Positions 4,938 to 44,667 of a stretch of DNA of 64,000 bases are shown here, piece by piece. The position numbers and the translations under genes are program-made. Below the pieces are notes generated by a model. The model was not told the origin of the DNA. It saw only the letters and a program-made list of their open reading frames with translations, and ran no database searches. The DNA is taken from NCBI GenBank assembly GCA_014729135.1, contig WJKK01000001.1, positions 128,593 to 192,592 of the forward strand, read 5' to 3'. Within the stretch, counting starts at the first letter, position 1. Each line of letters opens with the position of its first letter. This stretch comes from a candidate division WWE3 bacterium (lineage in GTDB: Bacteria; Patescibacteriota; WWE3; UBA101185; UBA10185).

Positions 4938-5622
4938 GAATGATGTAACAAGAAACCTGTGGAATTCCTATAAGAAGAGCGAGGAATATGCGAAAGGAAT
5001 GCATAAAGCAATTCCGGAAAATCACCCCTTAATACAAGAGCGGGAGAAAGAGGGCTTACAACATATCTACTCCCAGGTTAAAAACAAGACCGCCCAAGGA
5101 GAGCTTGCGTTTAAAAAGCTCAAAAAACGAACAGTAGGTAGTTGGGTTAATGAGTGGAAAAAAATGCATTCCACACTTTTTGGAACAGTGCTTAAAGAGC
5201 ATGGGCATTTAAGAAAGAACGATGTCAGGTTTGGAGGTATTGACAGTGTAGAAAAACACAAAATACCCACCTATAAAGAGGTACCTCGAGAGATAAACAA
5301 GCTAGCCTACAAAATACCCCAATTTATGCAAGAAACAAAGGAACAAAGTGAAATCTGCAAAATTCTAGCAAAAATACACTATCAATTTATTCGAATACAC
5401 CCTTTTTACGACGGAAACGGAAGAATAGCACGCGTCTTAACGGATCAAATTTCAGTGGCATATGGATTGCCCCCAGCCATAGCGGGATATCCCCGGCATG
5501 ATAAAAAAAGAAGAGAAGCCTATCACAAAGCAATCGATTCCTGCGCAGAGGATTCAACGTGCGAAAGTCTGGCCCTCTGGATTGAGGGTTATATAAGCAA
5601 ACAGAAAGAACAACTTGCTTAA
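4918..5622 (+). CDS. Fic/Doc family protein (putative AMPylating toxin)
   Basis: Canonical Fic motif HPFYDGNGRIAR (HxFx[D/E]GNGRxxR). Confidence 0.8.
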   Translation: MEKSLSKNDVTRNLWNSYKKSEEYAKGMHKAIPENHPLIQEREKEGLQHIYSQVKNKTAQGELAFKKLKKRTVGSWVNEWKKMHSTLFGTVLKEHGHLRKNDVRFGGIDSVEKHKIPTYKEVPREINKLAYKIPQFMQETKEQSEICKILAKIHYQFIRIHPFYDGNGRIARVLTDQISVAYGLPPAIAGYPRHDKKRREAYHKAIDSCAEDSTCESLALWIEGYISKQKEQLA

Positions 5623-5743
5623 AATTTCTGTAGCTTTATGGAAATCTTTATAAAACTGCAAATCCTTTTATTTTTTAGTGCTGTTGTTATCTTTTTTGGA
5701 ATTGGCTACATGATGGAAATCTAACCGTTCAAGACCTTACTTC

Positions 5744-5772
5744 TTGACACAAGGTTACACAATGTGTAATAT
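5744..5772 (+). promoter_or_regulatory. sigma70-like promoter with overlapping palindromic operator for the vapBC-like operon
   Basis: TTGACA (5744-5749), a 17-nt spacer, then TAATAT (5767-5772) with an upstream TGTG. The palindrome TTACACAATGTGTAA (5755-5769) overlaps the -10 element. The start codon is at 5782. Confidence 0.45.
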
Positions 5773-5781
5773 GTAATCATT

Positions 5782-6027
5782 ATGAACAGAGTACAAGTAT
5801 TACTAAAACCTGAAACCATAACTAAAGTAAAAAAAGCCGCCAAAAAGAACAAAACCTCTGCCTCCGGCTTTATTAGAGAGGTGGTAGAGAAGGAGCTGGA
5901 AAAGGAAAAATCTAAAAAGGACCCCATAAAAATCCTATTAAATGCAGCTAAAAACGCGTCCAAAGGAGGTCCCAGAGACCTCAGCACCAATGATGACTAT
6001 CTTTATGGCAAGGACAGCGTACTATGA
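5782..6027 (+). CDS. ribbon-helix-helix antitoxin (VapB/CopG-like)
   Basis: 81 aa with an RHH-like segment (SASGFIREVVEKELEK). It overlaps the downstream PIN gene by 4 nt (ATGA). Confidence 0.5.
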   Translation: MNRVQVLLKPETITKVKKAAKKNKTSASGFIREVVEKELEKEKSKKDPIKILLNAAKNASKGGPRDLSTNDDYLYGKDSVL

Positions 6028-6428
6028 GAATTCTAATAGATGCTGATACCTATATAGCCCTCTACAACAAAGACGACGCCCTACACAACAAAGCAAATAA
6101 AATCCTAAATTCTCTCAAAAACAAAGATGTAGAAACCTTTACTACTTATGATGTTGTGGATGAAGTGGCGACTAAATTGTCTTATTTCTTAAAAAAATCG
6201 GATTCTCTGAGGTTTTTAAAGCAGTTAATGGAGTCCGAAACAGAAATAATCTATCCCACCGAAAACAGCCTCCTTGAAACAATAGAAAAAGTGAAATCAA
6301 TAAGGTCTAAAAGAGTTTCTTTCACGGATTGCGCAAATATGATTGCTTACAAGCATTACGACATAGATGCGATTTTTTCTTTTGACAAGATTTACGAGAA
6401 GCAAGGGATAAAAACGTTGAAACCATGA
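6024..6428 (+). CDS. vapC: PIN-domain toxin (VapC-like)
   Basis: 134 aa with N-terminal ILIDADTYIAL (acidic D residues) and C-terminal FTDCANMIAYKHYDIDAIFSFDK, the typical PIN signature. Confidence 0.75.
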   Translation: MRILIDADTYIALYNKDDALHNKANKILNSLKNKDVETFTTYDVVDEVATKLSYFLKKSDSLRFLKQLMESETEIIYPTENSLLETIEKVKSIRSKRVSFTDCANMIAYKHYDIDAIFSFDKIYEKQGIKTLKP

Positions 6429-6455
6429 TAAAATAGGCACTGCTAGGCCAAACAT

Positions 6456-6544
6456 GGAGGGTTGGCAGAGTGGTAATGCAGCGGCTTGCTAAGCCGTCAC
6501 CGTGTAATAGCGGTGCGTGGGTTCGAATCCCGCACCCTCCGCCA
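6456..6544 (+). tRNA. tRNA-Ser (anticodon GCU), class II with long variable arm
   Basis: Acceptor GGAGGGT/ACCCTCC. Anticodon loop TTGCTAA. The long variable arm is CACCGTGTAATAGCGGTG. T-loop TTCGAAT. CCA is encoded. Confidence 0.85.
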
Positions 6545-6757
6545 AAAAGATTCCGCTACGCGGAACTTTTTGGGCCAGGTAAATTCGACTGAATAGGAGA
6601 ATTTAGCTGCAACGTAAAAGTTCCAGGAACTTTTACGGATCTTCCAAAATTGCAAATTTTGGAAGCACCTTCAAGTGTAGCGAAGCTACCTTGAATAGCT
6701 TTTGCGCAGCAAAAGGTGAGCTCTTCTAAAGATCCTGACTTTCGTCAGGATGACGCT
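6545..6757 (+). repeat. array of six consecutive near-perfect hairpins (modular repeat) 3' of tRNA-Ser
   Basis: First hairpin is a terminator-like AAAAGATTCCGC-TAC-GCGGAACTTTTT. Then a 12-bp stem CGTAAAAGTTCC/GGAACTTTTACG (6613-6637). An 11-bp stem CTTCCAAAATT-GCA-AATTTTGGAAG (6641-6665). TTCAAGTGTAGC-GAA-GCTACCTTGAA (6669-6694). GCTTTTGC-GCA-GCAAAAG (6698-6716). ATCCTGAC-TTTC-GTCAGGAT (6732-6751). A near-identical copy of 6597-6727 occurs at 14088-14218. Confidence 0.6.
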
Positions 6758-6822
6758 ACCCTCCAGCGGCATAACTCCCACAAATTGCAAACAACAAAAA
6801 ACCCCGCTAAAATAAACCCAAC

Positions 6823-7404
6823 ATGCAACTAAACCAAATCACAGACTTCCTAGGACTCACCGACACAAAATCAAAAGAACCCGAGCCCGCCGACAATCCC
6901 GTATTCAACGTAGAGCAGGCAGGAGAAAAAAAGACCCTTGTAGAATGGGAAGCTCCCTTAAGAACCCCGCTAAAAGCAATGGGAGGTAAACTAAAAAAGA
7001 ACCTCCTAATAGTTGCCATAGTAATGGGGCTTTTCCTCCTTCTAATAGGTGAATACTTCATAATCCTTGTGGTTGCAAGCGTCGTCTTCATTGGATACAT
7101 CCTGTCGGCAACCCCCGCAGAAACCGTCCACTACGAAATCACCACTCACGGCATAAAATACGTGAATCAATTTTACTACTGGAACGAGTTTGGACCTTTC
7201 TTCATTACGGAAGACAATGGAGTGGCCGTGCTAAACGTTGATATGAAAGAGCAAATTCCGGCAAGGCTCTTTATTACTATAAAGGAAGGGCAAAAGGAGA
7301 AGGTTAAGGAGGCATGTGCTAAATATTTGCCTTATTTAGAGGAAAAGCCCGAAACATTCTTGGACAAAGCTTACGAAAAGATTACAAGCAAGCTGGATTT
7401 TTAG
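6823..7404 (+). CDS. hypothetical membrane protein (two central TM helices)
   Basis: 193 aa with hydrophobic segments LLIVAIVMGLFLLLIGEYFIILVVASVVFIGYIL. No recognisable family. Confidence 0.5.
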   Translation: MQLNQITDFLGLTDTKSKEPEPADNPVFNVEQAGEKKTLVEWEAPLRTPLKAMGGKLKKNLLIVAIVMGLFLLLIGEYFIILVVASVVFIGYILSATPAETVHYEITTHGIKYVNQFYYWNEFGPFFITEDNGVAVLNVDMKEQIPARLFITIKEGQKEKVKEACAKYLPYLEEKPETFLDKAYEKITSKLDF

Positions 7405-7505
7405 CTTTCCGATTTAATTTCCCTGTTTTAAAAGTATAGGTTTTAAGAGATAACAAAGGTTTTTCTGTATTTTGCGGTATAATACGCGATGTGGGAGCAG
7501 TGTTT

Positions 7506-7581
7506 GCGCCCGTAGCTCAGTGGATAGAGCACAGCATTGCGGATGCTGGGGTCGGGGGTTCGAGTCCCTCCGGGCGCGCCA
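7506..7581 (+). tRNA. tRNA-Arg (anticodon GCG as encoded)
   Basis: Acceptor GCGCCCG/CGGGCGC. Anticodon loop TTGCGGA (34-36 = GCG). T-arm GGGGG-TTCGAGT-CCCTC. CCA is encoded. Confidence 0.75.
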
Positions 7582-7720
7582 AAAAGATTCCGCTACGCGG
7601 AACTTTTTGGCCCAAGCAAATGTGAGCGAATGCGAACATTTGTTTGCTGCCTCACAAGTTGTACTCAACTTGTGAAGAGGAGAATTTAGCTGCACCCGAG
7701 GCATTTGCCAAAGGCAAATG
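7582..7720 (+). repeat. hairpin-module array 3' of tRNA-Arg, sharing modules with the tmRNA 3' region and the tRNA-Ser 3' region
   Basis: AAAAGATTCCGC-TAC-GCGGAACTTTTT. Then CAAATGT-GAGCGAATGCGA-ACATTTG (7617-7642). The stem covaries against 4211-4236 (TAC/GTA changes to TGT/ACA) while the loop is conserved. Then TCACAAGTTG-TACT-CAACTTGTGA (7652-7675), whose reverse complement is at 12671-12694. Then GCATTTGCC-AAA-GGCAAATGC (7700-7722). Confidence 0.55.
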
Positions 7721-7794
7721 GCGAACTATTTTAACGCGGGTATTTGTTTGAAAATAACAAGTCGCATTAGATAATTATTCTTGTCATCCAAGCC

Positions 7795-9139
7795 CTCTTG
7801 TTAGATAAAAATTCAATGTCATCCAAATTAAACAAATAAATATTAGAATGCTACCTAAAGTATCTGTTTCCTGCCCTCTTTAGGAAGGATCTCTATGAAT
7901 GATTTTGATATGAATTTAACTCAAAAAATGGCTAAAAATTACAAAAAAGCTGCCAAAAAGGACAAGTCCAAAATCTTGGATGATTACTGCAAATTAACTC
8001 AGGTTAAGCGTAATACTGCCGTAAAACGCTTTAGAAGAAAAATACGTAAACCTTATCCTAAGGCTTTACCTATAAAACCAAAGAAAAGGGGTAGAAAGAA
8101 AAAGTACTCTCAAATCCACAAATTACTTATTCAAAATATTTGGGATCTGGCAGATCAAATCTGTGCAGAACGTCTCTACCCTTGCCTGCCTCTATATGTA
8201 GAACAACTACATAAATCAGAAAAACTTAATGGATTCCCTCAAGAAGTTATTGATTGTGTCTTAAATATCCCCCTAGGTACACTTAAATACTTCATCGCAG
8301 ATTTCCCTAAACCTACTTACAAAAAGAAACGTAAGGGCAATAAAGATCTGTATAAACAAATCCCTATAAAAGCTAACTTCGGAAAACACTCTAATAAACC
8401 CGGTTTTGTGGAAGTTGATTATGTAGAGCATAATCAAGGAAGTAACGGTACCTGGGCTATCTCAGGCTGTTACAACGATATCTTCTCAGGATGGATTACA
8501 AGAGCTGCCGGTATGGGTAAATCTTATGAATCCGTTAAAGCCATCCATAAAAAGTGTATGAATGGCTTTTTTCATAAAATAATAGAACTTCATCCCGATA
8601 ATATGCTTTCCACCCTTAAACTACTACTTGAAGACATGATTACAAAAGAAAACCCAACAGGCCTCTTTTATGTCTCAAGATCAAGACCGTATGAAAGTAA
8701 TGATAATGCCCATGTTGAACAAAAAAACGGTGACAAAATAAGACGTCTTGTTGGTTACCATCGCTACGGCACCAAAGAACAACTAAACCTCCTAAATAAA
8801 CTCTATTCAGTTAGTGACCTCTATGATAACTTCTTTATTCCCTCTGCAAAACTAAAAGAAAAAATTATGGATACTAATGGTCGCGTTATTAAAAGAAAAC
8901 ATGATAAACCTAAAACACCTTTCCAACGCCTCCTGGAAAGTGAAGATATTTCCCCAATAGTGAAAAATAACCTTAAAACTGCCTGTGCTAAACTAAACAT
9001 GGTTGATCTAAAAGCTCAAAGAGATAAACTTGTGCAAAAACTAACGAAGACTGTATTAAATTAGATGACAAAATTTTTATCTAACAAGGGGTAAAAAAAG
9101 GGCATTTGGATGACATCGAATTTTTATCTAATACGAGTC
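7795..9139 (+). mobile_element. insertion sequence (about 1.35 kb) with about 30-bp terminal inverted repeats, inserted between tRNA-Arg and tRNA-Ala
   Basis: Left end is CTTGTTAGATAAAAATTCAATGTCATCCAA (7797-7826). Right end is TTGGATGACATCGAATTTTTATCTAATACGAG (9106-9137), the reverse complement with 3 mismatches. A second subterminal copy GATGACAAAATTTTTATCTAACAAG lies at 9065-9090. The element encloses a single transposase ORF. Confidence 0.6.
7895..9064 (+). CDS. DDE transposase (rve/integrase-type catalytic core; IS30/IS481-like)
   Basis: 389 aa. The basic N-terminus is a putative HTH. Candidate catalytic residues are FVEVDYVEH (D1), HPDNMLS (D2) and SRPYESNDNAHVEQKNGDKIRRL (E region, resembling the integrase-core motif RPY..P..NG.vER). 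Confidence 0.65.
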   Translation: MNDFDMNLTQKMAKNYKKAAKKDKSKILDDYCKLTQVKRNTAVKRFRRKIRKPYPKALPIKPKKRGRKKKYSQIHKLLIQNIWDLADQICAERLYPCLPLYVEQLHKSEKLNGFPQEVIDCVLNIPLGTLKYFIADFPKPTYKKKRKGNKDLYKQIPIKANFGKHSNKPGFVEVDYVEHNQGSNGTWAISGCYNDIFSGWITRAAGMGKSYESVKAIHKKCMNGFFHKIIELHPDNMLSTLKLLLEDMITKENPTGLFYVSRSRPYESNDNAHVEQKNGDKIRRLVGYHRYGTKEQLNLLNKLYSVSDLYDNFFIPSAKLKEKIMDTNGRVIKRKHDKPKTPFQRLLESEDISPIVKNNLKTACAKLNMVDLKAQRDKLVQKLTKTVLN

Positions 9140-9228
9140 GCTTCCTGCGACTTGTTAGGTATAACAAAAAGCTCACTCATGCTCGCTTTTTGTTAAACCT
9201 TAAAGGTTTTCTTACGAAAACACTTTAA

Positions 9229-9305
9229 GGGCCGTTAGCTCAGATGGCTAGAGCACTACATTCGCATTGTAGAGGTCGTGGGTTCGAATCCCGCACGGTC
9301 CACCA
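9229..9305 (+). tRNA. tRNA-Ala (anticodon CGC)
   Basis: Acceptor GGGCCGT/ACGGTCC with a G3-U70 pair. Anticodon loop TTCGCAT. T-loop TTCGAAT. CCA is encoded. Confidence 0.85.
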
Positions 9306-9320
9306 TGCTAAAATTAAGAC

Positions 9321-10352
9321 ATGCCTAAAATGAAACCAGCAGCACACCAGGAACGACCAAAACCAATAGAAACACAAAGAGATGACCCCTTAGCAAGGAT
9401 TCGAGAAGAAATCCCACCTTACCGCGAAACTTCAGGCTTAGAAAAAGAACCTTATGGATTACATCCGGATGACGCTCACTTAGGGCGCTATCTAGCTTTA
9501 AAAACACACGTAGCTACTAAAGAGCGAAGCCCTGAAGGCTGGGATGTGTACATAAACAACAATGCAAATTTTAGACTACCTGAAGAGTGGTTCCAAAGCA
9601 ACGCGGAAAGAGAAGAAACAGAACTGGAAACTCTCTCTAAAAGAACCACACATTTTCTAGCAAAACTAGGAAAAAACCGAGGAGGCTCTCTAACAGAATT
9701 TACCCAAGCCTGTCTCAAAGACGCTCAAAGACAAGAAGCCCTGGCCAGACTGTTACAGGCCTTCCCTAAGATAAGCCTAAACATCGCAACAGAGTACATT
9801 CCATTTGCACTTGACCGCCTTTCAGCAGCTCTTGACGAAGATGCAGAATTAGCAATTTTAATAGCTGAGGGAGAAATTGAGGCCTTAGGTAAAAACATGG
9901 GGGTACTTACACCGGGAATAGTCCTGAAACCAGAGGGAGGAAGAAAAGAGGCGGCTCTTTTAGCGCATAAAATGGAAGCGCTATTTCAAGATTGTGCAGA
10001 AGAGATAAGAGGAGGATCTCTTCCAAGGGAAACCGGGAATTTAGTACTTGTAGAAACAGGTAGAAAATCTCTCGAAAAAACCTTACTAGCAAATGCCCCC
10101 GGCGTTGTAGAAAAGGCTGCGGCAGAACCGCCCCCGCATCTTTCGGAAGCATGGACACGTGCCCCCGAGCAAGTTGAAGAATATCCCCTTGAACAGTTGG
10201 AAAAGGACATACAGCTCCTGGAAAAATTCGAAGAGAATTACGACCCAAAGGAGATACGGAATCAGTGGAGGGAAGCCCTGGAAGAAAAACCATATCCGGA
10301 ACAAAGGCGAGAGGCCGTTGAAAAACTCCTGTATGGAGAAGAAAAAAGCTAA
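9321..10352 (+). CDS. hypothetical charged (E/K/R-rich) protein; possible cargo of an integrative element
   Basis: 343-aa ORF starting 16 nt after tRNA-Ala. Local GC is higher than in neighbouring genes, which is why many spurious antisense ORFs are called here. No family recognised. Confidence 0.45.
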   Translation: MPKMKPAAHQERPKPIETQRDDPLARIREEIPPYRETSGLEKEPYGLHPDDAHLGRYLALKTHVATKERSPEGWDVYINNNANFRLPEEWFQSNAEREETELETLSKRTTHFLAKLGKNRGGSLTEFTQACLKDAQRQEALARLLQAFPKISLNIATEYIPFALDRLSAALDEDAELAILIAEGEIEALGKNMGVLTPGIVLKPEGGRKEAALLAHKMEALFQDCAEEIRGGSLPRETGNLVLVETGRKSLEKTLLANAPGVVEKAAAEPPPHLSEAWTRAPEQVEEYPLEQLEKDIQLLEKFEENYDPKEIRNQWREALEEKPYPEQRREAVEKLLYGEEKS

Positions 10353-10394
10353 AGCGCTTTCAAATCCCCAAACAACCCCCTATACTATAAATAC

Positions 10395-10991
10395 ATGGGA
10401 ATATATAGCTTAAAAACAACTCTGGAACGAGAAGAAATAGGTCTCGGCTCCTTCCTAAACCCAAAGCACACAAGAGGCATAGGACGTCCAACAGAAAAAA
10501 GGGCAAGTGCAGAGGACGTGGAAAAAAAACAAGTGCAACTCTCCCCAGAGGCCAAGACACGCTTCAAAACAACAGCCACAGGAACCCTCCTGGAAATACA
10601 CCAACAACATGGCGGAAAACCCCAAGAACAAAGAAGACAAGCGCTAGAAATAAGAAAACAACTTGGAGAATACCTAGGTCCTGAAGAACTCAAAGAAGTT
10701 GCGGCAGGAGCAGCCCTCCTTTTAGCAATACAACAAACAGAAGATTATTCGGGCTATCTTGAAGAGAAAGCAGGAATAGTACTAACAGGAAAATTTGCCT
10801 ATAAAGCTGAACTAAAAACAGAGGAAGGGTCGCAAATGCAAGTACAAAACCTCTCCACGGAAGAAGAACCAACTCTCCAAATAACCCTTGGAGATGAACT
10901 TTTTAACGCAACTACAGGAGAACCCAATGCAAATCTTGGAGAAAAAATAGAAAGAGCCTTGAGGGAGGCGGAAATTACACCAAGAACTTAA
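10395..10991 (+). CDS. hypothetical protein
   Basis: 198-aa ORF. No family recognised. It lies between tRNA-Ala and a tyrosine recombinase. Confidence 0.4.
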   Translation: MGIYSLKTTLEREEIGLGSFLNPKHTRGIGRPTEKRASAEDVEKKQVQLSPEAKTRFKTTATGTLLEIHQQHGGKPQEQRRQALEIRKQLGEYLGPEELKEVAAGAALLLAIQQTEDYSGYLEEKAGIVLTGKFAYKAELKTEEGSQMQVQNLSTEEEPTLQITLGDELFNATTGEPNANLGEKIERALREAEITPRT

Positions 10992-11881
10992 AGCGTAACC
11001 AACTCCACCTTCTGACCACTCTCCTCAACACCGGCATACTCCAAATAACGCTCCGTAGTAGAAACCCTCTTATGCCCCACAACCTTAGAAACATAAGCCA
11101 AACTCACATCATTCTTCAGCTGCTGTGCAATAAACGTATGGCGCAAATCATTCACCGTAGCATCATCAATATCGGCCTTCTCAAAGTAACGATTAATAGT
11201 AGAACGAATATTTCGCACCAACATAGGATTTCCCGTACGCGTAATAAACAAAAATTCACTCTCCTGGTCCTCACGACCCTCATCAATATAACGCTTTATA
11301 GCAGCCTGGGCGATCTCATTCAAAGGAACCGTACGTTCATTTTTAGAACCTCTAGCAGGAATATATAAGTAAGGATCCTTACCTTCCGTGGAAGCAGTTT
11401 TTTCAGTATCCATGTGGAGGTGTGCCAGCTTTATACCGGCAATTTCAGAAATAGAAATTCCTGTTTGCAAAAAGACCTCTATTAAAGCATAAGTGCGCAA
11501 ATCGCCACGAGCCACATCCCTTAAAGCGCGATACTCCAGTGCGGACAAAATTCTAGGAGGGGACACCTTAACCTCAGGATGCTCCAGCCGAGAGGCAGGA
11601 TCATCACTCACATATCTTTTAGTATCAAGGAAGGAAAAGAAAGTCTTTGTAGAGTTAGTCTTTCGAGAAATAGTCTTATTGGTATAGCCCTTCTCCGCAA
11701 AGTGCTCCATGAAATCCTCCAAATCCTCCAGAGAGACATCATTAGGATCAGTAATCCCATTTTTCTCCATAAAATTAGCCAATTGCTCAATATCCTTGCT
11801 GTAAGCAATTAGAGTAGAGTTTGCTCTTCCAAGCTCCTCCAAATATTTAACAAATTGTTTTCTAGCTTCTTTTAGATTCAT
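10988..11881 (-). CDS. tyrosine recombinase / integrase (XerC/XerD-like)
   Basis: 297 aa. N-terminal SAM-like core-binding domain. C-terminal catalytic motifs ARGSKNER...LRHTFIAQQL...VGHKRVSTTERYL (R..H-x-x-R..H..Y). Confidence 0.8.
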   Translation of the reverse strand: MNLKEARKQFVKYLEELGRANSTLIAYSKDIEQLANFMEKNGITDPNDVSLEDLEDFMEHFAEKGYTNKTISRKTNSTKTFFSFLDTKRYVSDDPASRLEHPEVKVSPPRILSALEYRALRDVARGDLRTYALIEVFLQTGISISEIAGIKLAHLHMDTEKTASTEGKDPYLYIPARGSKNERTVPLNEIAQAAIKRYIDEGREDQESEFLFITRTGNPMLVRNIRSTINRYFEKADIDDATVNDLRHTFIAQQLKNDVSLAYVSKVVGHKRVSTTERYLEYAGVEESGQKVELVTL

Positions 11882-14670: not shown

Positions 14671-15828
14671 CTACTCCCCAAACAAAAACCTCTGCACATA
14701 AGCACGCACCTGAGAATAATCCCCACTCTTAGGCAACAAAACATACTTTCCGCCATATAAACTTGCATCCACCGGAGAATACAAAAGACCCCCCTCCTCC
14801 GCTAAACTACGATCATCCAAAACAATTGTCCTAACCCCTTCAAAATTAATCTCCTGAGACAAAACATAAAAATCCTGCAACGTAGCAAAATCCATATTTG
14901 TAGAAACACTATCCTTGTAAATCCCGTACAACTCCGCTAGCTTTTTAGGATTAATTAATGTCTCCAAAGAAGTAGCCTTATCCTTTAAAGACATGATCAC
15001 CTTTTGCTGGCGAGCAGAACGAGCAAAATCCGTATTTTCCCCATTAGTCCCTTTACGAGAGCGCACAAACTCTAAAGCCGTTTTTCCATCCATTGTTTGG
15101 TTACCTGACTCAAACGAAACATGCTTATAACGACAAGGGAAAATTTGCGCTGTCCCATATTCCGCTTCCACCATCTCCGCAATCTCTTCAGAAGTACGCC
15201 CGCATAAATCCGCCTCCTTACCCTCCACAGGATAATTGTAATCATCAAAAGCAGTTTCCACATTGACCTCTACACCCTCTAAAGCATCAATAACCTCTAC
15301 AAACAAATCGAAATTAACAACGCCATAATAGTGAATTGGAATCCCCAAAACATCCTCCACACTTTCCTGCAAAACTTCTACAGGCTCTTCGTCGGTGTAA
15401 TAGGCGTAGGCATAAACCTCGTTTATCTTGCATTTACCACAAACCTCACTAGAAACCCAAAGATCGCGAGGCAAGGAAATTAAAACAATGTTGTTATCTA
15501 AGCGCCCAATGGAAGCCACCAGAATAGTATCTGCTCTTTCAGGAGAATCTTGATCGTCAGCAGCGCGCCTGTCAGAACCAAGCAACAAAAGATTAGTTCG
15601 CCCGTCGGTTTCCTTTAACTCAACGCCATTAACTGTAGCTACAACTGAAACGGGGTCAAAAAGAGCTTTTACCTGATCACTAAAAAGAAAAATCGATCCT
15701 CCCGCTACTACAAAAAAAACCAGCAAAACCACCAAATATTTCCACACCTTTGTACCCTTTTTTGAAGGATTCTTGCCGGTTTTAGAGGCATGTTTATTCT
15801 TATTTTTCTTTAAATCAGGATAACGCAT
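14671..15828 (-). CDS. LytR-CpsA-Psr (LCP) family cell-envelope phosphotransferase
   Basis: N-terminal TM anchor. LCP core motifs TNLLLLGSDRR...ADTILVASI...LISLPRDLWV. Confidence 0.8.
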   Translation of the reverse strand: MRYPDLKKNKNKHASKTGKNPSKKGTKVWKYLVVLLVFFVVAGGSIFLFSDQVKALFDPVSVVATVNGVELKETDGRTNLLLLGSDRRAADDQDSPERADTILVASIGRLDNNIVLISLPRDLWVSSEVCGKCKINEVYAYAYYTDEEPVEVLQESVEDVLGIPIHYYGVVNFDLFVEVIDALEGVEVNVETAFDDYNYPVEGKEADLCGRTSEEIAEMVEAEYGTAQIFPCRYKHVSFESGNQTMDGKTALEFVRSRKGTNGENTDFARSARQQKVIMSLKDKATSLETLINPKKLAELYGIYKDSVSTNMDFATLQDFYVLSQEINFEGVRTIVLDDRSLAEEGGLLYSPVDASLYGGKYVLLPKSGDYSQVRAYVQRFLFGE

Positions 15829-15843: not shown

Positions 15844-16533
15844 TTAATTCCAGCTCTTGACCAACTCTAAAAAATGATAAGGATCTAAGCTTGCCTGCCC
15901 CACTAAAACTCCGTCAAGGGCTTCTATAGCAGCCAAATCACTTACGTTGTCTTTATTTACCGAACCACCATACAACACTATAGCCCCTTTTGGCAAGGAA
16001 TTCTTCATGTTTGTTACGGTTTCTTTAATTTTGGCTATAGGAGCTTTCTTATATTCTCCCCCTGCGGAAATGTTTTGAGGATCCTCCCAAGCTAAGATGA
16101 CGCCCTCCTTGTAGAAAAATTCAGCTTGTTCAGGTGAGGTGAAGCAGATAATGGGAGTTATGCCATGTTCTAAAGCTTTATCTCTTTTTGCTGCAACTAA
16201 AGCGGGAGCTTCTGCGCGTTCACTGTGACCTACAATGGAGTATTTGCAGTAGTCTTTTACTTGAAAGGCACCTATTTCGCCTGTGTGAGAACCTTTTGAG
16301 TCTGCGGACACGTTTTGAGTTGCTAAGTTTACTTTGGTGGAGGCATTTTTGGAAAGGTCTTTTAAGGAGTTTTGCAAGTCCGAAAGGTGAAGTGCTGTAG
16401 GCGCAAGGATTGTTTGAACGCCACTGACATCTTTTTCTGATAGCGCGGAAAATTCAGTTTTAAACTTAGCAGCCCAATCCAAAACATCATCCCGCGACAT
16501 TTTCATCTTCCAATTAGCAATTACATACTTCAT
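15844..16533 (-). CDS. tpiA: triosephosphate isomerase
   Basis: MKYVIANWKM (ANWKMN signature) and IVGHSERA. The six-frame ORF extends to 16674, but the upstream 47 aa are not TIM-like. The start is placed at the ATG encoded by 16531-16533. Confidence 0.75.
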   Translation of the reverse strand: MKYVIANWKMKMSRDDVLDWAAKFKTEFSALSEKDVSGVQTILAPTALHLSDLQNSLKDLSKNASTKVNLATQNVSADSKGSHTGEIGAFQVKDYCKYSIVGHSERAEAPALVAAKRDKALEHGITPIICFTSPEQAEFFYKEGVILAWEDPQNISAGGEYKKAPIAKIKETVTNMKNSLPKGAIVLYGGSVNKDNVSDLAAIEALDGVLVGQASLDPYHFLELVKSWN

Positions 16534-17420
16534 AAATTTTCCAAATCCTCCATTAAACTTTTTACCAAATTGGGAATATTTTCCAATTCCTCGTGTGTAT
16601 AGACATATCCTAAAGCATTTAAACAGGAGAACACAACTCCCGGGTCGGAATAAATTTCCTCCGCATACGTACAAGCAACTAAACTATGAACTAAAACGTT
16701 TCCGGAAGTTTCCCCTACCTGAGACTTATCACATCCCATAGGACATCCAACACAGGAGGGATTATCCGCCGGAGAAATTTTAAGCTTTTGGGCTTCATTA
16801 AAGAGCTTAAGATACAATTTCCCGTAACGGGAAATGCCTTCAATATCAAAAGAAGAGTCGGCGTTTATTAGCAACCCTCCTAAGTTACGCTTTGCAAATA
16901 AAAAGGAGAGCAAATGATCTTTGGTATGAAAATAATCATCTAAAAGTAAGTGCTCCTTAAAACTTAACAAAGAGCTTCTTCCCGGAAGAGACTTTCCTGA
17001 AAACTCCTCAAAAGAGTCATAAAAGTTAACAGCACCTGAAGTTATTTCTGTAAAAACAGGAGTCTTAGACTTCCCCAAAATAACAACAGCATCCAAACCA
17101 ATAAAGCGAAGACGTGAAGACAAACTGCCTCCTAAATAAAGTTCCGTAAGACCTTTCCTGCCGGGATTAATTATAGAATTGGACTCTGTAGCAAGATCTA
17201 AATTGGATCCCGTTAAAACACAAGTCTTAGAAACATACGGAAAAAGGCCGTTTAAAGGACCAATAGAAAAAATCAAAGGATCCTCATCGGCATGCATTTG
17301 CAAAAGCTTTAATCCCAAAGCCAATCCACCCAGATAAGCGTGCAAATCGGGATACGTCTTAACGTTAAAGGTCTTATCGGAAAGATTGATATAAAGAACT
17401 TTTCTATTCGAGAAGTTCAT
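16530..17420 (-). CDS. miniaturised aldehyde:ferredoxin oxidoreductase (AOR)-family protein (AOR N-domain plus Fe-S loop only)
   Basis: 296 aa. The N-terminus matches the AOR_N domain: KVLYINLSDKTFNVKTYPDLHAYLGGLALGLKLL, GSLSSRLRFIGLDAVVILGKSKTPVF. The motif NPSCVGCPMGCDKSQVGETSG matches the AOR [4Fe-4S]-binding loop (C.xCP.GCgR...vGETeG). The roughly 300-aa pterin-binding domains of full-length AOR (about 600 aa) are absent. Confidence 0.5.
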   Translation of the reverse strand: MNFSNRKVLYINLSDKTFNVKTYPDLHAYLGGLALGLKLLQMHADEDPLIFSIGPLNGLFPYVSKTCVLTGSNLDLATESNSIINPGRKGLTELYLGGSLSSRLRFIGLDAVVILGKSKTPVFTEITSGAVNFYDSFEEFSGKSLPGRSSLLSFKEHLLLDDYFHTKDHLLSFLFAKRNLGGLLINADSSFDIEGISRYGKLYLKLFNEAQKLKISPADNPSCVGCPMGCDKSQVGETSGNVLVHSLVACTYAEEIYSDPGVVFSCLNALGYVYTHEELENIPNLVKSLMEDLENL

Positions 17421-17655
17421 AATCGTCTACTTCCCGAACCTCGTAAACTCCTTGTGGGCATATGTCTCGAATTTTTTCCACATCTAAAGTGTTAACTTGA
17501 GGGTCTAAAACTATGGAAAACTTGGTTCCTTCTCTGAAAACACGAATGAAGGCGCCTTCAAGGCCTACTTTTCCTAGTTGACGCTGCGAGTCCATGACGC
17601 ACATTTCGCAGCCTATGCATTTTTCCGGAAAGACCGGTTTTAAGATTTTAGTCAT
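17404..17655 (-). CDS. small 4Fe-4S ferredoxin-like protein
   Basis: 83 aa. Cys pattern CIGCEMCV (CxxCxxC) plus a distal CPQG, consistent with a single-cluster ferredoxin. Confidence 0.5.
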   Translation of the reverse strand: MTKILKPVFPEKCIGCEMCVMDSQRQLGKVGLEGAFIRVFREGTKFSIVLDPQVNTLDVEKIRDICPQGVYEVREVDDYELLE

Positions 17656-17703: not shown

Positions 17704-18720
17704 TTAATCATAATAGCCTAAAGCAGCTAAGGCAGGCAATTTCTTACCGCTTAAAAAGTCTAACATAGCCCCTCCTCCTGTGGATACAAAATCAAAGGAG
17801 TCTAATAAGCCCAATTTATCTAGGCAGCTGACGGTATCACCTCCACCTACTACAGAACGTGCAGGAGATGCCAAGACAGCTTCTGCAATTTTTTGGCTGC
17901 CTTCTGCGTATCCTTGGTCATAGGCTCCCATAGGCCCTGCCCAAATAATAGTAGCCGCTTTTTTAATGACTTCTGAGTAGTGTTTAATGGTTAAGGGACC
18001 TATATCTAATCCGTTATGGGAGTAGTCTTGTGGATATAAAACTTTGGAATTGGCCGGGTCGCTGGAGTCTTTTTTTAACGCTCCACCAACTAGAACGTAA
18101 TCAAAGTGTTTGGCCAAAGCATAAATTGCCTCTTTTTTTGAGTTTTTTACGCCTCCTACAAGGGCAAACAGTGGTCGCGCGGAGGTATCTATTTTTAGAA
18201 GTTTTTCCATTTCTGTAATTTCTTTTTCTAAACGTAATCCTGCAAAACCGGGAAGGATCTTTGGAACCAAGGCCATAGATGTGTCGGCTCTATGACTATT
18301 ACCAAAGCTTTCATTTACATAAAAGTCTGCTTTTTTAGCTAGTTCCTTTGCAAAAGCTAGGTCCTTCCCTTTTTCTCGCGAGTCAAAACGAAGATTCTCA
18401 AGAAGTGTATAATTTTTGCTACCCAAATGCTGATTAAAAAAGGGCTCCAAATTTTTTGTGCTTAACTTGGGAGTTGTTTTTTTAGGGCGTCCCATGTGAC
18501 CCGCTATTACAGGATGAATCTCATTTTCTATAAGGAGTTTTAACGTGGGAAGAAGCACTTCTAAACGATAATCCTCCAGTATTTCTCCATTGTCGCTTAA
18601 AGGAATGTCCAGATCAGCGCGTACAAAAGCTTTGCTTCCTGGTGCTAATGTTTCTGAGGAAGTGTTTGGTGTTTTTGGAGTTGCTGAAGTGTTTTTAAAG
18701 GCCTGAGATAGGTATTTCAC
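17704..18720 (-). CDS. pgk: phosphoglycerate kinase
   Basis: N-terminal RADLDIPL...VLLPTLKLLIENEIHPVIAGHMGRPKK matches the PGK signature (RvDfNVP...SHLGRP). The C-terminal PGK pattern is also present. Confidence 0.85.
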   Translation of the reverse strand: MKYLSQAFKNTSATPKTPNTSSETLAPGSKAFVRADLDIPLSDNGEILEDYRLEVLLPTLKLLIENEIHPVIAGHMGRPKKTTPKLSTKNLEPFFNQHLGSKNYTLLENLRFDSREKGKDLAFAKELAKKADFYVNESFGNSHRADTSMALVPKILPGFAGLRLEKEITEMEKLLKIDTSARPLFALVGGVKNSKKEAIYALAKHFDYVLVGGALKKDSSDPANSKVLYPQDYSHNGLDIGPLTIKHYSEVIKKAATIIWAGPMGAYDQGYAEGSQKIAEAVLASPARSVVGGGDTVSCLDKLGLLDSFDFVSTGGGAMLDFLSGKKLPALAALGYYD

Positions 18721-18795: not shown

Positions 18796-20262
18796 TTAGC
18801 GCTTCTTGGGATCACCCTTAATCCAAGCACTCACCTTCTTAGGCATCTTAACTGATGTAATACAAGTAAAAATCATGATAATCGGCGTAAACACAGCAGT
18901 AAGGCCACTCTGCAACAATAAGTCGGTCATACCTCCCTGAGCCTGGGAAAGAAAGGCAATAAAAGGAAAAGCAAACGTAAGCGCCAAAACTAAAACCATA
19001 GCAAAAATGGACAAAACACCTGCGGCAATTTCCTTAAACCAATTTAGTATCATATCCTCCTTACCGGGAATAACACCCAAAGCAAAGTAAATAGGTGAAA
19101 TCACAATGTAACTTAGAAGCTTAATGTATGTAACTAAAACCTTTATAAAGGCTATCAAGGCTACCACCAGTAAAACTATGAGGAAAACTAACATGCTAAA
19201 TAGCAAGGTAAGCCCCATACCGGCATTCCAAAGCAAGCCATTAACCGAAGCTAATACACCCCAACCAATATAGGAAAAGGCACCGGAACTACTTAGATCG
19301 TTCAAAATTTCGGTACTTGCCCATGTATCAACGGCAGTATCTGCTACCAATTCCACAGGTAATACTACAGCCAACCCCATCAAGGGGCCTGTTAGGCGAA
19401 CAAGAAGCGTCCCTATGGGATAACTAAAAAAGATGAGGGCAATAGATAGAGCGATACGGGGAAGAGAATTCTGAACAGTTACTACCGCTTGGGGATTTAT
19501 CTTTTTGCGTGTCATTATCATAACCCCTACCACTAACAAAAAGATGGACATTAGACCCAAGGCTATATTGCGAGTAAGTTTCCACATAGCAAAAACCAAC
19601 TTAGCTCCTAAATAATTGTCGGGAGTACTTTGTGCGTACGCTGTATTCCTGACAACAGGAATACGCTGTGCATAATCCTTGAAAAAGTAGGCCATATTTA
19701 CAGGAATCTCTTCCCTATGCACAGTGTGTTCAAGATTAAGAACCATACCCAATAAACTACCACTTCCACTTATATCGGCGGAAGTGCCTATAGAGAAAGC
19801 CGTCTCGTTAAGAGCGCAGGCCTTGGGATCATAAGTCTTAACCATCTCGGCAGCATCTATAGCTACCTGAGTATCTTCTTCGGGAGTAGAACTATTAAGC
19901 TGAATAGACTCACACGTGTTGGGAATAAGGTCACACCCGGTACCTGCCCCTAACAAATTACCACTTTTGTCCAAATCCTTTGCTACCATAGCACAGTTGG
20001 TCAAGGTATCAGGGTTCTTTCCTGTGGTACCTAAACTGGTCATGTCTATAAGCAATCCGGAACCTGCTCCAATGGCCGTCTTTAAAATATTATTCTCACG
20101 GTATTCTCTATCAACAGCCATATGCCATAAGTGATTGGCCCCACGAAAAACGTCACCCACAGCTGCTTCTGCAGAAGGGGTAAAAAAACTTATTGAGGAA
20201 AGTGAAACCACAAAAGCAACCATCAAAGCGGGCAAATATCTTTTAATTCCCCTATTGTTCAT
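18796..20262 (-). CDS. secreted N-domain plus polytopic membrane protein with VirB6/TrbL-like topology
   Basis: Signal peptide ending AEA-AVGD. A Cys-containing extracytoplasmic domain of about 230 aa follows. Then at least 6 TM helices in the C-terminal half. No enzymatic motif. Confidence 0.45.
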   Translation of the reverse strand: MNNRGIKRYLPALMVAFVVSLSSISFFTPSAEAAVGDVFRGANHLWHMAVDREYRENNILKTAIGAGSGLLIDMTSLGTTGKNPDTLTNCAMVAKDLDKSGNLLGAGTGCDLIPNTCESIQLNSSTPEEDTQVAIDAAEMVKTYDPKACALNETAFSIGTSADISGSGSLLGMVLNLEHTVHREEIPVNMAYFFKDYAQRIPVVRNTAYAQSTPDNYLGAKLVFAMWKLTRNIALGLMSIFLLVVGVMIMTRKKINPQAVVTVQNSLPRIALSIALIFFSYPIGTLLVRLTGPLMGLAVVLPVELVADTAVDTWASTEILNDLSSSGAFSYIGWGVLASVNGLLWNAGMGLTLLFSMLVFLIVLLVVALIAFIKVLVTYIKLLSYIVISPIYFALGVIPGKEDMILNWFKEIAAGVLSIFAMVLVLALTFAFPFIAFLSQAQGGMTDLLLQSGLTAVFTPIIMIFTCITSVKMPKKVSAWIKGDPKKR

Positions 20263-20383
20263 AGCAAGTCAAATTTTATACTCACAACAAGAGTCCTGTC
20301 AAGAAAAACAAAAACGTAAAAAATCTGCAAATTAAAATAAAAAACTTTAAAAAGCCACCTTTTAAAGATAGAATAGTCTTGTT

Positions 20384-23300
20384 ATGCCAAAACCAGTAGG
20401 ATACAGCGGATATTATCCCGGCGATGAAATGATTCGCCAGCCCGGTGGAGGGCGTCCCAAACCTCCCAATGTTTACGATCTAAATGTTATTGCAGATGAA
20501 ATAGACCAATTCGGTTTTGCCCTCGAAGGGGTTCCTGAGTGGATTAAAGAGAAAATGACGGTGGGAGTACAGCAAAGTTTAAGAGCCAATGTTTTCTCCA
20601 AACCCATAAGCCCAGGAGACATGCAGGCATTTGAAGATGAAGAGCTGGAAGAAGAACTTACAGACATAACCGGACAAGCGGGACTTTCCATAAACTTAAA
20701 CCCCGTAGATATAGCTAAGGATCCTCAAAAATGGGCAAAGAAACTTGCAAAAGGGACATGGGCAGAGTTAAACCCACTGGGAGGAGACCTTGAAGCACGT
20801 AAACGTCAAGCTCTTTGGGCGGGCGCAATGGGCATAGGTAAAAATGGAGAATGGGCAACGGATGCAATTAAGCGCCAGGCCATTCGTCGAAGTGGAGAAG
20901 GCAGCTTCTTAGGTGCAGACATTAGCGACAATCCCCTTAACTTAACAACAGCTCTAGGAGAGTACGGAAAACTGGGAGAAAATGTTGCAACAAAAGCAGC
21001 CGATTTTGAAGCAAATATTAAAACGGCGCTATTTAGAGATGCAAAATTCGATGATGTTATGCGAGCCTCTCTTTCTGGCGCCAAAGCAGTAATAGCGGAC
21101 AACATAGAAACTCTTGCAGATAATGTGCATGCTGATGATGCTGTGGCTGCCATAGCATTTAGTGCAAAAGTAGATCTGGCTAAACATATGGAAGACACTG
21201 CGGAAGCTGTAGATGATGCTGTTGAAGCTATTAAACGCTTAGCGCAAGAAGACGGAGCTCTTGATAAACATGGAAAACCCATTGAACTTGATAAAGAAAT
21301 AGCCAAATTAAATCAACAGTTAGCAAAAACTGAAGCTCACATCCAATTAATGGAACAAGGAAGAGATGCTTTGAGCAGACACCAATTAGAACTTTTGGGA
21401 ATTGCTAAAGGGGGTAATTTAGTAGCGGGAAACATATATGCAAGTGATCTTTTGGATGGAGTAGGTCCTCTCTTAACTGCAGATGGCCTTAGAAGAATTC
21501 ATCCTCAAATTAACGGCTGTAGAGGAATACTAAAAAACATAAACCAGGTTGCCACCGGACACAAAGATAGAGGCAGCTCTTTTGGGCTAAGGCAACTTGC
21601 GGAGAAGCTTTCCACAACAACAGTTAATCTTACAGGAAATGGGGCAAGCCTCACATCCCTTGATTTTAACAGTCTTGAAAGATCCCTTCTTAGACAACTT
21701 TCTGATGAATTCACAAGAGGACTTATCACAGGACGGGAAGCAGCAACCCGCTTAGAAGACATCTATAGAGGCTTAAGCCCCGACGGCAAAGAATATATGC
21801 GACGCATCCGCAGATTACTTCCTACTTTAGAAAAGGATCGCCAGTTCTTTGCAGTTGATGACTTTATGGATGCAATGTATTCTGATGACCTGTTCACCAA
21901 ATTTTTATGGGCAGCTCGACTAAATCCGCGATTAAAAGCGCTAACCCCCGGATACTGGACGGGCGAATTCATGGAAAAGATGCACTACTTTGGATTGTTA
22001 GTGGATGAAGGTTCTTTATTGGATGCAAATGGAAACCCTATAAATCCTAAATTCTTCCTTTACAAATGGATGAACAAGTTTGTTATGAGCAGAGATGGCC
22101 TGGCAAACAAGTTCTCTATAGATATAGAAGGCTTTGGCTCCCATGTTGTTAGAGGGGGACATCACTTTGGTGCAGTTAAAGAATTACACACCCTGCTAAA
22201 GGGAGATAAGATAAGTCCGCAACAACTTTCCCTACTGATGAAAGCCGGCAGCGAAAGTGACATTAGAGCACTCCTTGCAGGCTTTGTGGGACCGGATGAA
22301 AAAAAATTCTTTACAGATCCGGAAAAACTGGACAGATTAGCAAAACAAGTGAAAAAGTTACGCGATTGGGTACAAAAAAATGCCCAAAGACTGGGGATAG
22401 ACATCAATAAGGGAGAAGATCTTGCAAAACTTCTTGCAGGGCTCATGAAATATGATGCTAACAAAGTTAAAAACATAGGTATTGGGATCACAAAAGCTTT
22501 TAGGGGCAAACTTCAACACTTAGTCCAAAAATTAAGCTGGCTACAAGATAAGATTTTTAAGAGTTTTGCCGGAAAAGTGGTGGGAAAGTTTTTATCATGG
22601 AAAACGGCCATTTCTACAGCGATTTCTGAAATACTCATGGATGCCGTGGTAGCTATAACGGGAGGAGTGGGCGTGTTATTTAAGCCCTTAGAAGTCCTGC
22701 TTCAGGCGGCTATTAGAATTATTCTGGACATTGGAGAGAAAGTAATCCTAAGTATACTTAAGGCAGATTTCGGCGAACTAGGAAAGTTTTTAGATAAATC
22801 ACTGATAAATGTTGCCAAATTCTTTGCACAAGTAACTGCGGTAATAGTTTTTGCTGTAGCAATACCTGCCATGATAGTGGTTACTCTGTTAAGCGGAATT
22901 CCTCCCGTAAACCATGCAAATGTAGGTGCTTTAGGAGGCGCAGGAGCAGGCGGAACCGGAGACGGTGGTGGACCCACCCCTCGAGTACTCCCCCCTATAG
23001 AAGCGGGAACCTGTTTCTTCGAAAACAATCAAGGCTTTTTAACATACCCATCCTTTGGATATAATTCCAGTACAGGAGAATATAACAACTCTTGTTCAGG
23101 ATACTATTCACCTTACTACGGCCACGGAACCTATGCCTACTCATATTGCTATAACATCCCCAATCTTTGGTTCATTAGCCAAACATCCAAAATGCTAACA
23201 GGCTGTGAAAGAGTATCGCGCTGCTCTTCCAGTGCTGCAGAAGCCACAGATTATTTTGGAATGGCTGCAGACTTTGCAAGGGATTATAATGCTCCCTCCG

Positions 23301-23620
23301 AGCTCTCCGAAGTATACCTTCCTGAATTAGGCAATCCAAATGAGGACGGGGACATTATATGGAACGTCGTGGATACCTCTTTTCATAATGGATTTGGAGC
23401 CCATGTGAACTTACGTAGAAGCGATGGAGAAAATGATTACTACATGCAAATCCTACACATAGTAGGAAACAATAATTTAACAAACGGAGCAGAACTCGAA
23501 GCCGGAACACACATAGGCAGACTTTACGATCTAAGTGGAACCAGAAATCACGTTCATATAGAATTAGAGGTGGATGGAGAAATTAGAAGACCTGATTATG
23601 TTTTTTGCACAGGAGAGTAA
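20384..23620 (+). CDS. 1078-aa multidomain protein: long Ala/Lys-rich helical region, TM segment, Gly/Cys-rich linker, C-terminal M23 (LytM-type) metallopeptidase domain
   Basis: C-terminus ...NGFGAHVNLRRSDGENDYYMQILHIVGN...GTRNHVHIELEVDGEIRRPD carries the M23 HxH motif. TM segment VTAVIVFAVAIPAMIVVTLLSGI near residue 800. Gly tract GGAGAGGTGDGGGPTP. Confidence 0.65.
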   Translation: MPKPVGYSGYYPGDEMIRQPGGGRPKPPNVYDLNVIADEIDQFGFALEGVPEWIKEKMTVGVQQSLRANVFSKPISPGDMQAFEDEELEEELTDITGQAGLSINLNPVDIAKDPQKWAKKLAKGTWAELNPLGGDLEARKRQALWAGAMGIGKNGEWATDAIKRQAIRRSGEGSFLGADISDNPLNLTTALGEYGKLGENVATKAADFEANIKTALFRDAKFDDVMRASLSGAKAVIADNIETLADNVHADDAVAAIAFSAKVDLAKHMEDTAEAVDDAVEAIKRLAQEDGALDKHGKPIELDKEIAKLNQQLAKTEAHIQLMEQGRDALSRHQLELLGIAKGGNLVAGNIYASDLLDGVGPLLTADGLRRIHPQINGCRGILKNINQVATGHKDRGSSFGLRQLAEKLSTTTVNLTGNGASLTSLDFNSLERSLLRQLSDEFTRGLITGREAATRLEDIYRGLSPDGKEYMRRIRRLLPTLEKDRQFFAVDDFMDAMYSDDLFTKFLWAARLNPRLKALTPGYWTGEFMEKMHYFGLLVDEGSLLDANGNPINPKFFLYKWMNKFVMSRDGLANKFSIDIEGFGSHVVRGGHHFGAVKELHTLLKGDKISPQQLSLLMKAGSESDIRALLAGFVGPDEKKFFTDPEKLDRLAKQVKKLRDWVQKNAQRLGIDINKGEDLAKLLAGLMKYDANKVKNIGIGITKAFRGKLQHLVQKLSWLQDKIFKSFAGKVVGKFLSWKTAISTAISEILMDAVVAITGGVGVLFKPLEVLLQAAIRIILDIGEKVILSILKADFGELGKFLDKSLINVAKFFAQVTAVIVFAVAIPAMIVVTLLSGIPPVNHANVGALGGAGAGGTGDGGGPTPRVLPPIEAGTCFFENNQGFLTYPSFGYNSSTGEYNNSCSGYYSPYYGHGTYAYSYCYNIPNLWFISQTSKMLTGCERVSRCSSSAAEATDYFGMAADFARDYNAPSELSEVYLPELGNPNEDGDIIWNVVDTSFHNGFGAHVNLRRSDGENDYYMQILHIVGNNNLTNGAELEAGTHIGRLYDLSGTRNHVHIELEVDGEIRRPDYVFCTGE

Positions 23621-44660: not shown

Positions 44661-44667
44661 CAACGCT

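Follow-up and report, generated by a model that had tools for sequence, protein, structure and literature searches.

A putative AOR-derived iron-sulfur protein pair encoded among the glycolytic genes of WWE3 bacteria

Large subunits of the AOR family, represented by P. furiosus AOR (1aor), FOR (1b25), WOR5 (6x1o), AorB (8c0z) and BamB (4z3w), are proteins of 600–650 residues that carry a CxxCxxxC motif and a distal cysteine, and are paired with an iron-sulfur (Fe-S) electron-transfer subunit. The archaeal GAPOR (NCBIfam NF040818) is a ferredoxin-linked member of the same superfamily that is tied to glycolysis by its function. Here, we describe a 296-residue protein of the AOR type, termed mini-AOR, that is encoded together with an 83-residue ferredoxin-like protein between pgk and tpiA of a candidate division WWE3 (Katanobacteria) bacterium. 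The analysis is based on a 64,000-nt stretch of its genome (positions 128,593–192,592 of contig WJKK01000001.1, assembly GCA_014729135.1), referred to as the window. Mini-AOR has in common with the AOR large subunits the AFOR_N domain, the fold (Foldseek E 6e-14), the cysteine pattern and the pairing with an Fe-S protein. However, proteins of the mini-AOR type are only ∼280–296 residues long, and of the two DxxGL(C/D) pterin motifs one is wholly gone and the other is changed (D489 to His). In comparison with GAPOR, the tie to glycolysis is one of gene context, the catalytic core is missing, and the family coexists with GAPDH and PGK instead of bypassing them.

The AOR family itself is already known; what appears to be new here is a pair of AOR-derived, cofactor-less Fe-S proteins. 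No description of the mini-AOR family was found in the literature searched, and Kantor et al. (PMC3812714) mention only "a ferredoxin oxidoreductase-like protein". Database entries are labeled "hypothetical" or, for many homologs in JGI, "aldehyde:ferredoxin oxidoreductase", which is a functional over-annotation. We consider it fairly probable that mini-AOR and its ferredoxin constitute a pterin-free, two-cluster electron-transfer or redox module that is co-expressed with triose-phosphate glycolysis. This pair occurs phylum-wide amid the near-universal core of gap, pgk and tpiA, and metabolic reconstructions should not list it as an aldehyde oxidoreductase. Comparisons below refer to 80 loci obtained from a scan of GTDB species representatives, which form the basis of all counts out of 80. 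They are all from metagenome-assembled genomes of WWE3/Patescibacteria, apart from the complete RAAC2_WWE3_1 chromosome.

Fold and anatomy of mini-AOR

Residues 7–143 of mini-AOR match Pfam AFOR_N (PF02730) with an E-value of 4.3e-19 (69.5 bits, cutoff 29.8). This is the sole Pfam match, and AFOR_C was not matched even at E≤1. A profile search of the PDB relates the protein to 1aor (E 4.4e-12), with the alignment to FOR extending to chain residue 218. The AlphaFold (AF2) model is compact (pLDDT 87.4, pTM 0.89), and a Foldseek search of the PDB with this model returned AOR-family structures only (1aor_A, E 6.4e-14; next non-AOR match, E>4e-3). Thus, the N-terminal AOR domain that a sequence-only reading of this DNA had proposed is borne out, and the resemblance holds in the structural comparison by which that reading thought it might prove spurious. 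The only disordered part of the model lies in a 19-residue insertion (residues 72–90), where pLDDT falls below 50 at residues 77–87. The insertion corresponds to the AOR loop around residues 80–88 and is absent from 34 aligned homologs.

The gene and its parts are as follows (all on the minus strand):

16530–17420, minus: mini-AOR gene, 296 residues; NCBI GF360_00645 "hypothetical protein" (100% match, P0001); Pfam AFOR_N
16836–17420, minus: mini-AOR residues 1–195; trimmed AOR domain 1, equivalent to AOR 1–∼210, from the profile comparison with the PDB and MAFFT
17151–17207, minus: residues 72–90; insertion GSNLDLATESNSIINPGRK, present in this genome's copy only and predicted to be disordered
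16701–16754, minus: residues 223–240; CxxCxxxC…GETSG loop, from phmmer and blastp against 1aor 284–309
16698–16703, minus: deletion junction between residues 240 and 241, from two-piece tblastn/blastp matches and the MAFFT alignment
16533–16700, minus: residues 241–296; retained C-terminal module, equivalent to AOR ∼485–540

For numbering, residues 7–564 of 1aor were rebuilt from the HMMER alignment. The functional residues of AOR (Chan et al. 1995), R76, N93, C288, C291, C295, E313, D338, D343, H448, K450, D489 and C494, were all recovered at the expected positions. Mini-AOR, intermediate and canonical forms were then aligned with 1aor using MAFFT E-INS-i. In this alignment, mini-AOR corresponds to AOR ∼1–309, with a shortened 220–280 linker, joined straight to AOR ∼485–540. 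The junction follows GETSG240, and the subsequent segment NVLVHSLVAC250 aligns to TALIDSAGLC494 of AOR. The [4Fe-4S] loop CVGCPMGCDKSQVGETSG quoted in the sequence-only reading was found at residues 223–240 and aligns to C288-x2-C291-x3-C295…GETEG. In the phmmer, blastp and MAFFT alignments, C223, C226 and C230 are equivalent to AOR Cys288, Cys291 and Cys295, and C250 to Cys494. Because the alignment continues across the junction to C494, these four cysteines are the predicted counterparts of the four AOR ligands and define a putative [4Fe-4S] cluster site.

The two-piece correspondence is also seen with a longer relative from a sister lineage, P0159, whose residues 7–276 and 435–482 match adjacent segments of the window that are 15 nt apart (tblastn/blastp). 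A hidden Markov model of the C-terminal module of mini-AOR matches P0159 445–484, P0167 487–535 and P0173 487–533, and places C250 on the cysteine of "sLhaC" in P0167, which itself aligns to 1aor C494. The spacing from this cysteine to "LGY/LGW" is 21 residues in both mini-AOR and 1aor. As judged from these alignments, mini-AOR is an in-frame internal deletion form of an AOR large subunit.

A plain C-terminal truncation was also considered and rejected, since the C-terminal 56 residues map to AOR ∼485–540 and not to the residues that follow the Cys motif. The sequence-only reading had the protein lacking the tungstopterin-binding domains of roughly 300 residues. The pterin core is indeed gone, but by excision of an internal block that left the fourth-cysteine segment in place and not by simple loss of the C-terminus.

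The deleted block (AOR ∼310–484) includes D338xxGLD343, the active-site residues E313 and H448 that lie close to W in AOR, K450, which contacts the pterin phosphate, and whatever else belongs to domains 2 and 3. The C-terminal ∼65 residues of AOR are absent as well. Within the retained parts, the Gly-rich GRGGVGAVMGSK loop of domain 1 is replaced, K65 takes the place of Arg76, which lies beside the cluster in AOR, Y95 that of Asn93, and H245 that of the pterin-binding D489. The C-terminal module also bears an invariant C266 and the motif LGYxYTHEELE. Since the pterin motifs, E313, H448, K450 and the Gly-rich loop are all lost or changed, mini-AOR is predicted to have no plausible tungstopterin site and hence no AOR-type catalysis.

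The missing domains might be supplied by a separate gene and reassemble with mini-AOR into a tungstoenzyme, as the sequence-only reading had also suggested. A retained Fe-S site and a ferredoxin are what such a split enzyme would need, and the searches covered the window, a 64-kb part of the 864-kb genome, and the flanks of the 80 loci. However, the excision is internal, with the flanks fused into one chain together with the Cys494 segment and without a break at a domain boundary, and the model is that of a confident, compact, stand-alone protein. The middle domains of AOR and of the long relatives were unmatched in the window (best tblastn E 0.16) and in the 80 loci (flanks ≤6 kb), the Gly-rich loop of domain 1 is lost too, and genes for the Mo/W cofactor are absent from the window. 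We therefore regard a split AOR as very improbable.

Ferredoxin partner, operon and conservation

The neighbors of mini-AOR in the window are:

17704–18720, minus: pgk, 338 residues; Pfam PGK E 3.2e-74; upstream operon neighbor
17404–17655, minus: ferredoxin-like open reading frame (ORF), 83 residues; C13, C16, C19 and C66-P67; Pfam Fer4, 21.8 bits
15844–16533, minus: tpiA, 229 residues from the ATG at 16533 (start from tblastn); Pfam TIM E 1.4e-40
14671–15828, minus: LytR_cpsA_psr gene (lytR), 385 residues; Pfam E 7.9e-33; conserved downstream syntenic anchor

The ferredoxin proposed for the ORF upstream of mini-AOR is confirmed by the pattern C13-x2-C16-x2-C19…C66-P67 and the match to Fer4, whose score is barely above the threshold of 21.1 bits. 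C13, C16 and C19 are conserved in 81 of 81 sequences and C66 in 80 of 81. When a profile built from 42 orthologs was compared with the PDB, four of the seven best matches were Fe-S subunits of AOR complexes (8c0z_C, 6x6u_B, 6x1o_B and 9mqx_E). Their E-values are marginal, ranging from 1.6e-3 (8c0z_C, AorA) to 0.06, and one cluster motif is present; the alignments run beyond the first CxxCxxC motif into the "SRI(K/R)VF" strand. AorA, the WOR5 small subunit (WOR5-S, 6x6u_B and 6x1o_B) and 9mqx_E are among the best PDB matches of the ORF, which shares with them the position directly upstream of an AOR-type gene. In contrast to these poly-ferredoxin subunits, it has one cluster (four cysteines) instead of four, and 83 residues instead of 150–190. 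A canonical 590-residue AOR relative (L090) is preceded by a classical four-cluster poly-ferredoxin. The ranking of the PDB matches and the position of the gene suggest that the 83-residue protein may be a one-cluster remnant of an AOR poly-ferredoxin small subunit.

All ORFs of the proposed order pgk, ferredoxin, AOR-like gene and tpiA are present on the minus strand, with overlapping starts and stops. At its 3′ end, the ferredoxin gene runs 17 nt into the mini-AOR gene, whose own stop shares ATGA with the start of tpiA, and 48 nt separate the pgk stop from the ferredoxin start. A scan for promoters and terminators gave site counts equal to the shuffled expectation.

This arrangement is widely conserved. 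The ferredoxin is paired upstream of mini-AOR in 80/80 loci and tpiA follows in 78/80, the other two contigs ending within ∼200 bp. Downstream, lytR comes after tpiA in 75 loci; upstream, pgk precedes the pair in 70, gap lies in the same operon in 56, and trx is the first gene of the operon in 51. In nine loci, trx-gap immediately precedes the pair and pgk is located elsewhere. Successive genes generally overlap by 4–23 nt; this range applies to the ferredoxin and mini-AOR in the majority of loci, and 4 nt is the commonest overlap of mini-AOR with tpiA. The mini-AOR pair is thus translationally coupled with pgk and tpiA.

In eleven loci, gap is absent from an upstream sequence of >4.7 kb, an arrangement common to the window and its closest relative (L006). 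A multi-pass membrane ORF of 488 residues without a Pfam match (within window 18796–23620) occupies the trx-gap site of most relatives, and the same gene is found at the same position in L006. In the window, it is adjoined by a divergent ORF of 1078 residues, also without a Pfam match.

Homologs of mini-AOR at E≤1e-3 number 251; among the 120 matches listed, all are 270–301 residues long with AFOR_N only and have sequence identities of 42–61%. A profile search of 1.8 billion representatives yielded 47 clusters (50% identity) of the short family at E<1e-30. The ORF is intact in 79/80 species (276–310 residues), and the exception (L086) ends with its 2.1-kb contig. C223, C226, C230, C250, C266, E237 and H276 are each invariant in 80/80, among ∼35 invariant columns in total. 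Pairwise dN/dS values (NG86, pairs at 70–97% identity) are 0.069 for mini-AOR, 0.060 for the ferredoxin, 0.064 for pgk and 0.097 for tpiA; they are approximate, as dS is ∼1.5. By these measures, mini-AOR is a functional gene under strong purifying selection, at the level of the glycolytic genes.

Being far shorter than its family and having lost the catalytic core, mini-AOR could be taken for a functionless remnant, and the sequence-only reading had listed a decaying gene among its options. The intact ORFs, the invariant residues (including five cysteines) and the low dN/dS refute a pseudogene, and the gene is coupled to essential genes, so that this explanation is practically untenable. Its other option, a novel minimal redox protein, is instead supported by the conserved family, the intact gene and the invariant Fe-S ligands.

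The genomic context had also been read as a hint at glyceraldehyde-3-phosphate oxidation, with mini-AOR as a minimal GAPOR-like enzyme that oxidizes glyceraldehyde-3-phosphate with ferredoxin and substitutes for a missing GAPDH. The AOR ancestry, the dedicated ferredoxin and the site between pgk and tpiA are in line with this idea, and, on grounds of context only, it is conceivable that an ancestral full-length enzyme at the locus used an aldehyde of glycolysis as its substrate. The absence of gap from the window was also confirmed: tblastn with WWE3 GAPDH gave no match at E≤1, and no SCTTN motif is present. However, E313, the D338 motif, H448, K450 and D489 are deleted or replaced in mini-AOR, which does not match NCBIfam GAPOR_Arch (NF040818) at E≤1. 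Even the long relatives score only 28–34 bits with this model, in the N-terminal domain alone, against a cutoff of 1300, and are nearer to AOR sensu stricto (1aor, E 8e-36). GAPDH shares the operon in the 56 relatives noted above, and PGK, which GAPOR bypasses, is present in 70. In one species where gap is not adjacent (L057), a GAPDH (P0382) appears on the same contig as its mini-AOR (P0071), so that gap appears to be encoded elsewhere in that genome. Of 8,000 matches scored with a WWE3 GAPDH profile, the 120 listed include this GAPDH but none on the window's own 864,248-bp contig, too small a share of the total to speak for or against gap in the present genome. Furthermore, GAPDH, PGK and TIM have been reported to be nearly universal in the candidate phyla radiation (Jaffe et al., PMC7304191). 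A GAPOR-like activity is thus highly unlikely, and a replacement of GAPDH by mini-AOR is not supported.

Variants of the locus and proposed function

After the mini-AOR family itself, the next-best matches are AOR-like proteins of 538–554 residues (profile E 1e-37 to 1e-22; P0159, P0164, P0163, P0165, P0169 and P0170). These closest full-length relatives occupy the same slot, as the sequence-only reading had proposed to check, and share the C-terminal "IYxD…LG…HE" module with mini-AOR. They differ from it in that divergent domains 2 and 3 are still present (AFOR_C scores of 48–92 bits, vs. 179 in the canonical relative) and in that tpiA does not lie between them and lytR. The gene order is pgk, ferredoxin (79 residues), AOR538 and lytR in L004; gap … ferredoxin (78 residues), AOR550, lytR, holA and sortase in L005 and L093; and ferredoxin, AOR554 and lytR in L092, with lytR directly after the long gene in all four. 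Because long AOR-like genes fill this slot in sister lineages, the gene has probably shrunk in place, and the earlier description of it as inserted between pgk and tpiA is misleading.

Three of the long proteins, P0163, P0165 and P0169 (549–550 residues; L005 6001–7653, L093 5001–6653 and L095 4102–5751), have lost all four cluster cysteines with their ORFs intact. A Cys-complete small ferredoxin is kept upstream in L005 and L093, while in L095 the ferredoxin is reduced to a C-terminal remnant. Shorter variants are also observed. Forms of 198–217 residues (L007 6001–6648, L094 149–745), from which most of domain 1 has been removed, adjoin pgk, ferredoxin or tpiA, and C266 is replaced by Ala in the 215–217-residue variants that retain the cluster cysteines. 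A 260-residue form (P0172, L009 6001–6783) has neither cluster cysteines nor a ferredoxin partner, and persists in the conserved slot next to lytR and gap. What all variants share is not the cysteines but two motifs, "GGxGL…GPLxG" at the N-terminus and "IYxD…LGYxYTHEELE" at the C-terminus. The locus may record a stepwise reduction of a metalloenzyme, from ∼600 to 550, 280 and ∼200 residues, and from a four-cluster to a one-cluster ferredoxin, in which the electron-transfer stub would outlive the catalytic cofactor and stay under housekeeping-level selection.

Loss (L009) or degradation (L095) of the ferredoxin ORF is confined to lineages whose AOR-like protein lacks the cluster cysteines, and affects two of four such lineages vs. 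none of ∼88 others (Fisher p = 0.0014, with kinship ignored). This distribution argues that electron transfer between the two proteins matters. In the module that we favor, an internal deletion would have stripped the tungstopterin and catalytic core while the domain-1 scaffold and the four cluster cysteines were retained, and the small subunit would have been cut from a poly-ferredoxin to a single [4Fe-4S] site. The two proteins would pair into a heterodimer that holds two [4Fe-4S] clusters but lacks both pterin and a metal cofactor. Drawing on the ferredoxin pool, this heterodimer would act as an electron relay or sensor, and its synthesis would keep a constant ratio to that of the glycolytic enzymes encoded by gap, pgk and tpiA. 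Ferredoxin-linked metabolism, with PFOR and a type 3b hydrogenase, has been reported for a complete WWE3 genome (PMC3812714); neither PFOR nor hydrogenase genes were found in the window. Mini-AOR could also offer a natural minimal AOR [4Fe-4S] domain for studies of ferredoxin docking.

Several points weigh against this module. Cluster binding, heterodimer formation and the absence of pterin are all read from sequence, and the similarity of the 83-residue protein to AOR small subunits is marginal at best. In a lineage that rearranges slowly, the proximity to glycolytic genes could in part be a matter of frozen synteny instead of function. Cluster-less relatives persist at the locus, two of them with an intact ferredoxin (L005 and L093), so that at least some of the function may be independent of the large-subunit cluster. 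Finally, a pure relay leaves the invariant C266, H245, E237 and H276/E277/E280 without a role, and these residues could mark a new active site.

The last point leads to an alternative in which the remodeled pterin site has acquired new catalysis, with the cluster, C266, H245, E237 and K65 forming an Fe-S active site. Such a protein might be a ferredoxin-dependent thiol/disulfide reductase similar in its working to ferredoxin:thioredoxin reductase (FTR), with the small ferredoxin as electron donor and the operon thioredoxin or the active-site cysteine of GAPDH as acceptor, or else an Fe-S enzyme with a triose phosphate as its substrate. It would account for the fifth invariant cysteine besides the four ligands (C266, 80/80), for the invariant H245 in place of D489 and the likewise invariant E237 and H276, for the thioredoxin at the head of the operon in 51 of the 80 species, and for a purifying selection as strong as that on the glycolytic enzymes. 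However, FTR needs a redox-active cysteine pair beside its cluster, and mini-AOR has one extra invariant cysteine only. It also lacks the CPC/CHC motifs of FTR, and Pfam (including FeThRed_B) gave nothing beyond AFOR_N at E≤1. The replacement of C266 by Ala in the cluster-retaining variants and the absence of trx and gap from the window speak against it as well. We consider new catalysis at this site unlikely. In its general form, as a novel type of pterin-free Fe-S enzyme with an AOR scaffold, tying the ferredoxin pool to the triose-phosphate module, the idea is doubtful but conceivable. If true, the electron-transfer stub of a metalloenzyme would have taken a new job once its cofactor was lost, and a WWE3-specific form of redox homeostasis would operate in an ultra-reduced genome, for example through control of the thiol redox state of GAPDH or thioredoxin by ferredoxin.

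The cluster-less homologs bear on a further explanation, namely that mini-AOR is a non-redox structural or regulatory adaptor of GAPDH-PGK-TPI or of another partner, its cluster being structural or a sensor of O2 or redox state. The intact ORFs of P0172, P0163, P0165 and P0169 at the same locus, the exclusion of the cysteines from the motifs shared by all variants, and the tight, conserved placement among gap, pgk and tpiA are consistent with such a role. On the other hand, all cluster and ferredoxin cysteines are invariant across the 80 species of the 280-residue family, and the lineages that have lost the ferredoxin partner are all cluster-less. An adaptor of this kind thus seems unlikely, and the electron-transfer module described above remains our preferred interpretation.

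Other features of the window

Region 3334–11881 looks like a mobile island integrated beside ssrA. It contains smpB and the transfer-messenger RNA (3784–4175), followed by a SocA/Panacea antitoxin and Fic pair (4335–5622), ORFs without Pfam matches, among which lie tRNA-Ser, tRNA-Arg and tRNA-Ala genes, and a tyrosine integrase (10988–11881, minus strand).

The replication-origin neighborhood is located at 42789–51004 of the window. This region contains dnaA (minus strand), an ORF-poor gap at ∼44.4–45.5 kb, yidC, jag (KH/R3H), dnaN, dnaG and rpoD, and the cumulative GC skew reaches its minimum near 42–44 kb.

The glycolytic enzymes themselves show some unusual features. PGK is short (338 residues, vs. 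321–344 in relatives), and its match to Pfam PGK is split into three segments. The score of TPI falls far short of all NCBIfam equivalog cutoffs. Jaffe et al. (PMC7304191) noted that some of the TIM sequences from Katanobacteria group with those of archaea. A phosphoglucose-isomerase-like gene (52675–53793), encoding 372 residues with a partial match to Pfam PGI, is located 35 kb from the pgk-tpiA cluster.

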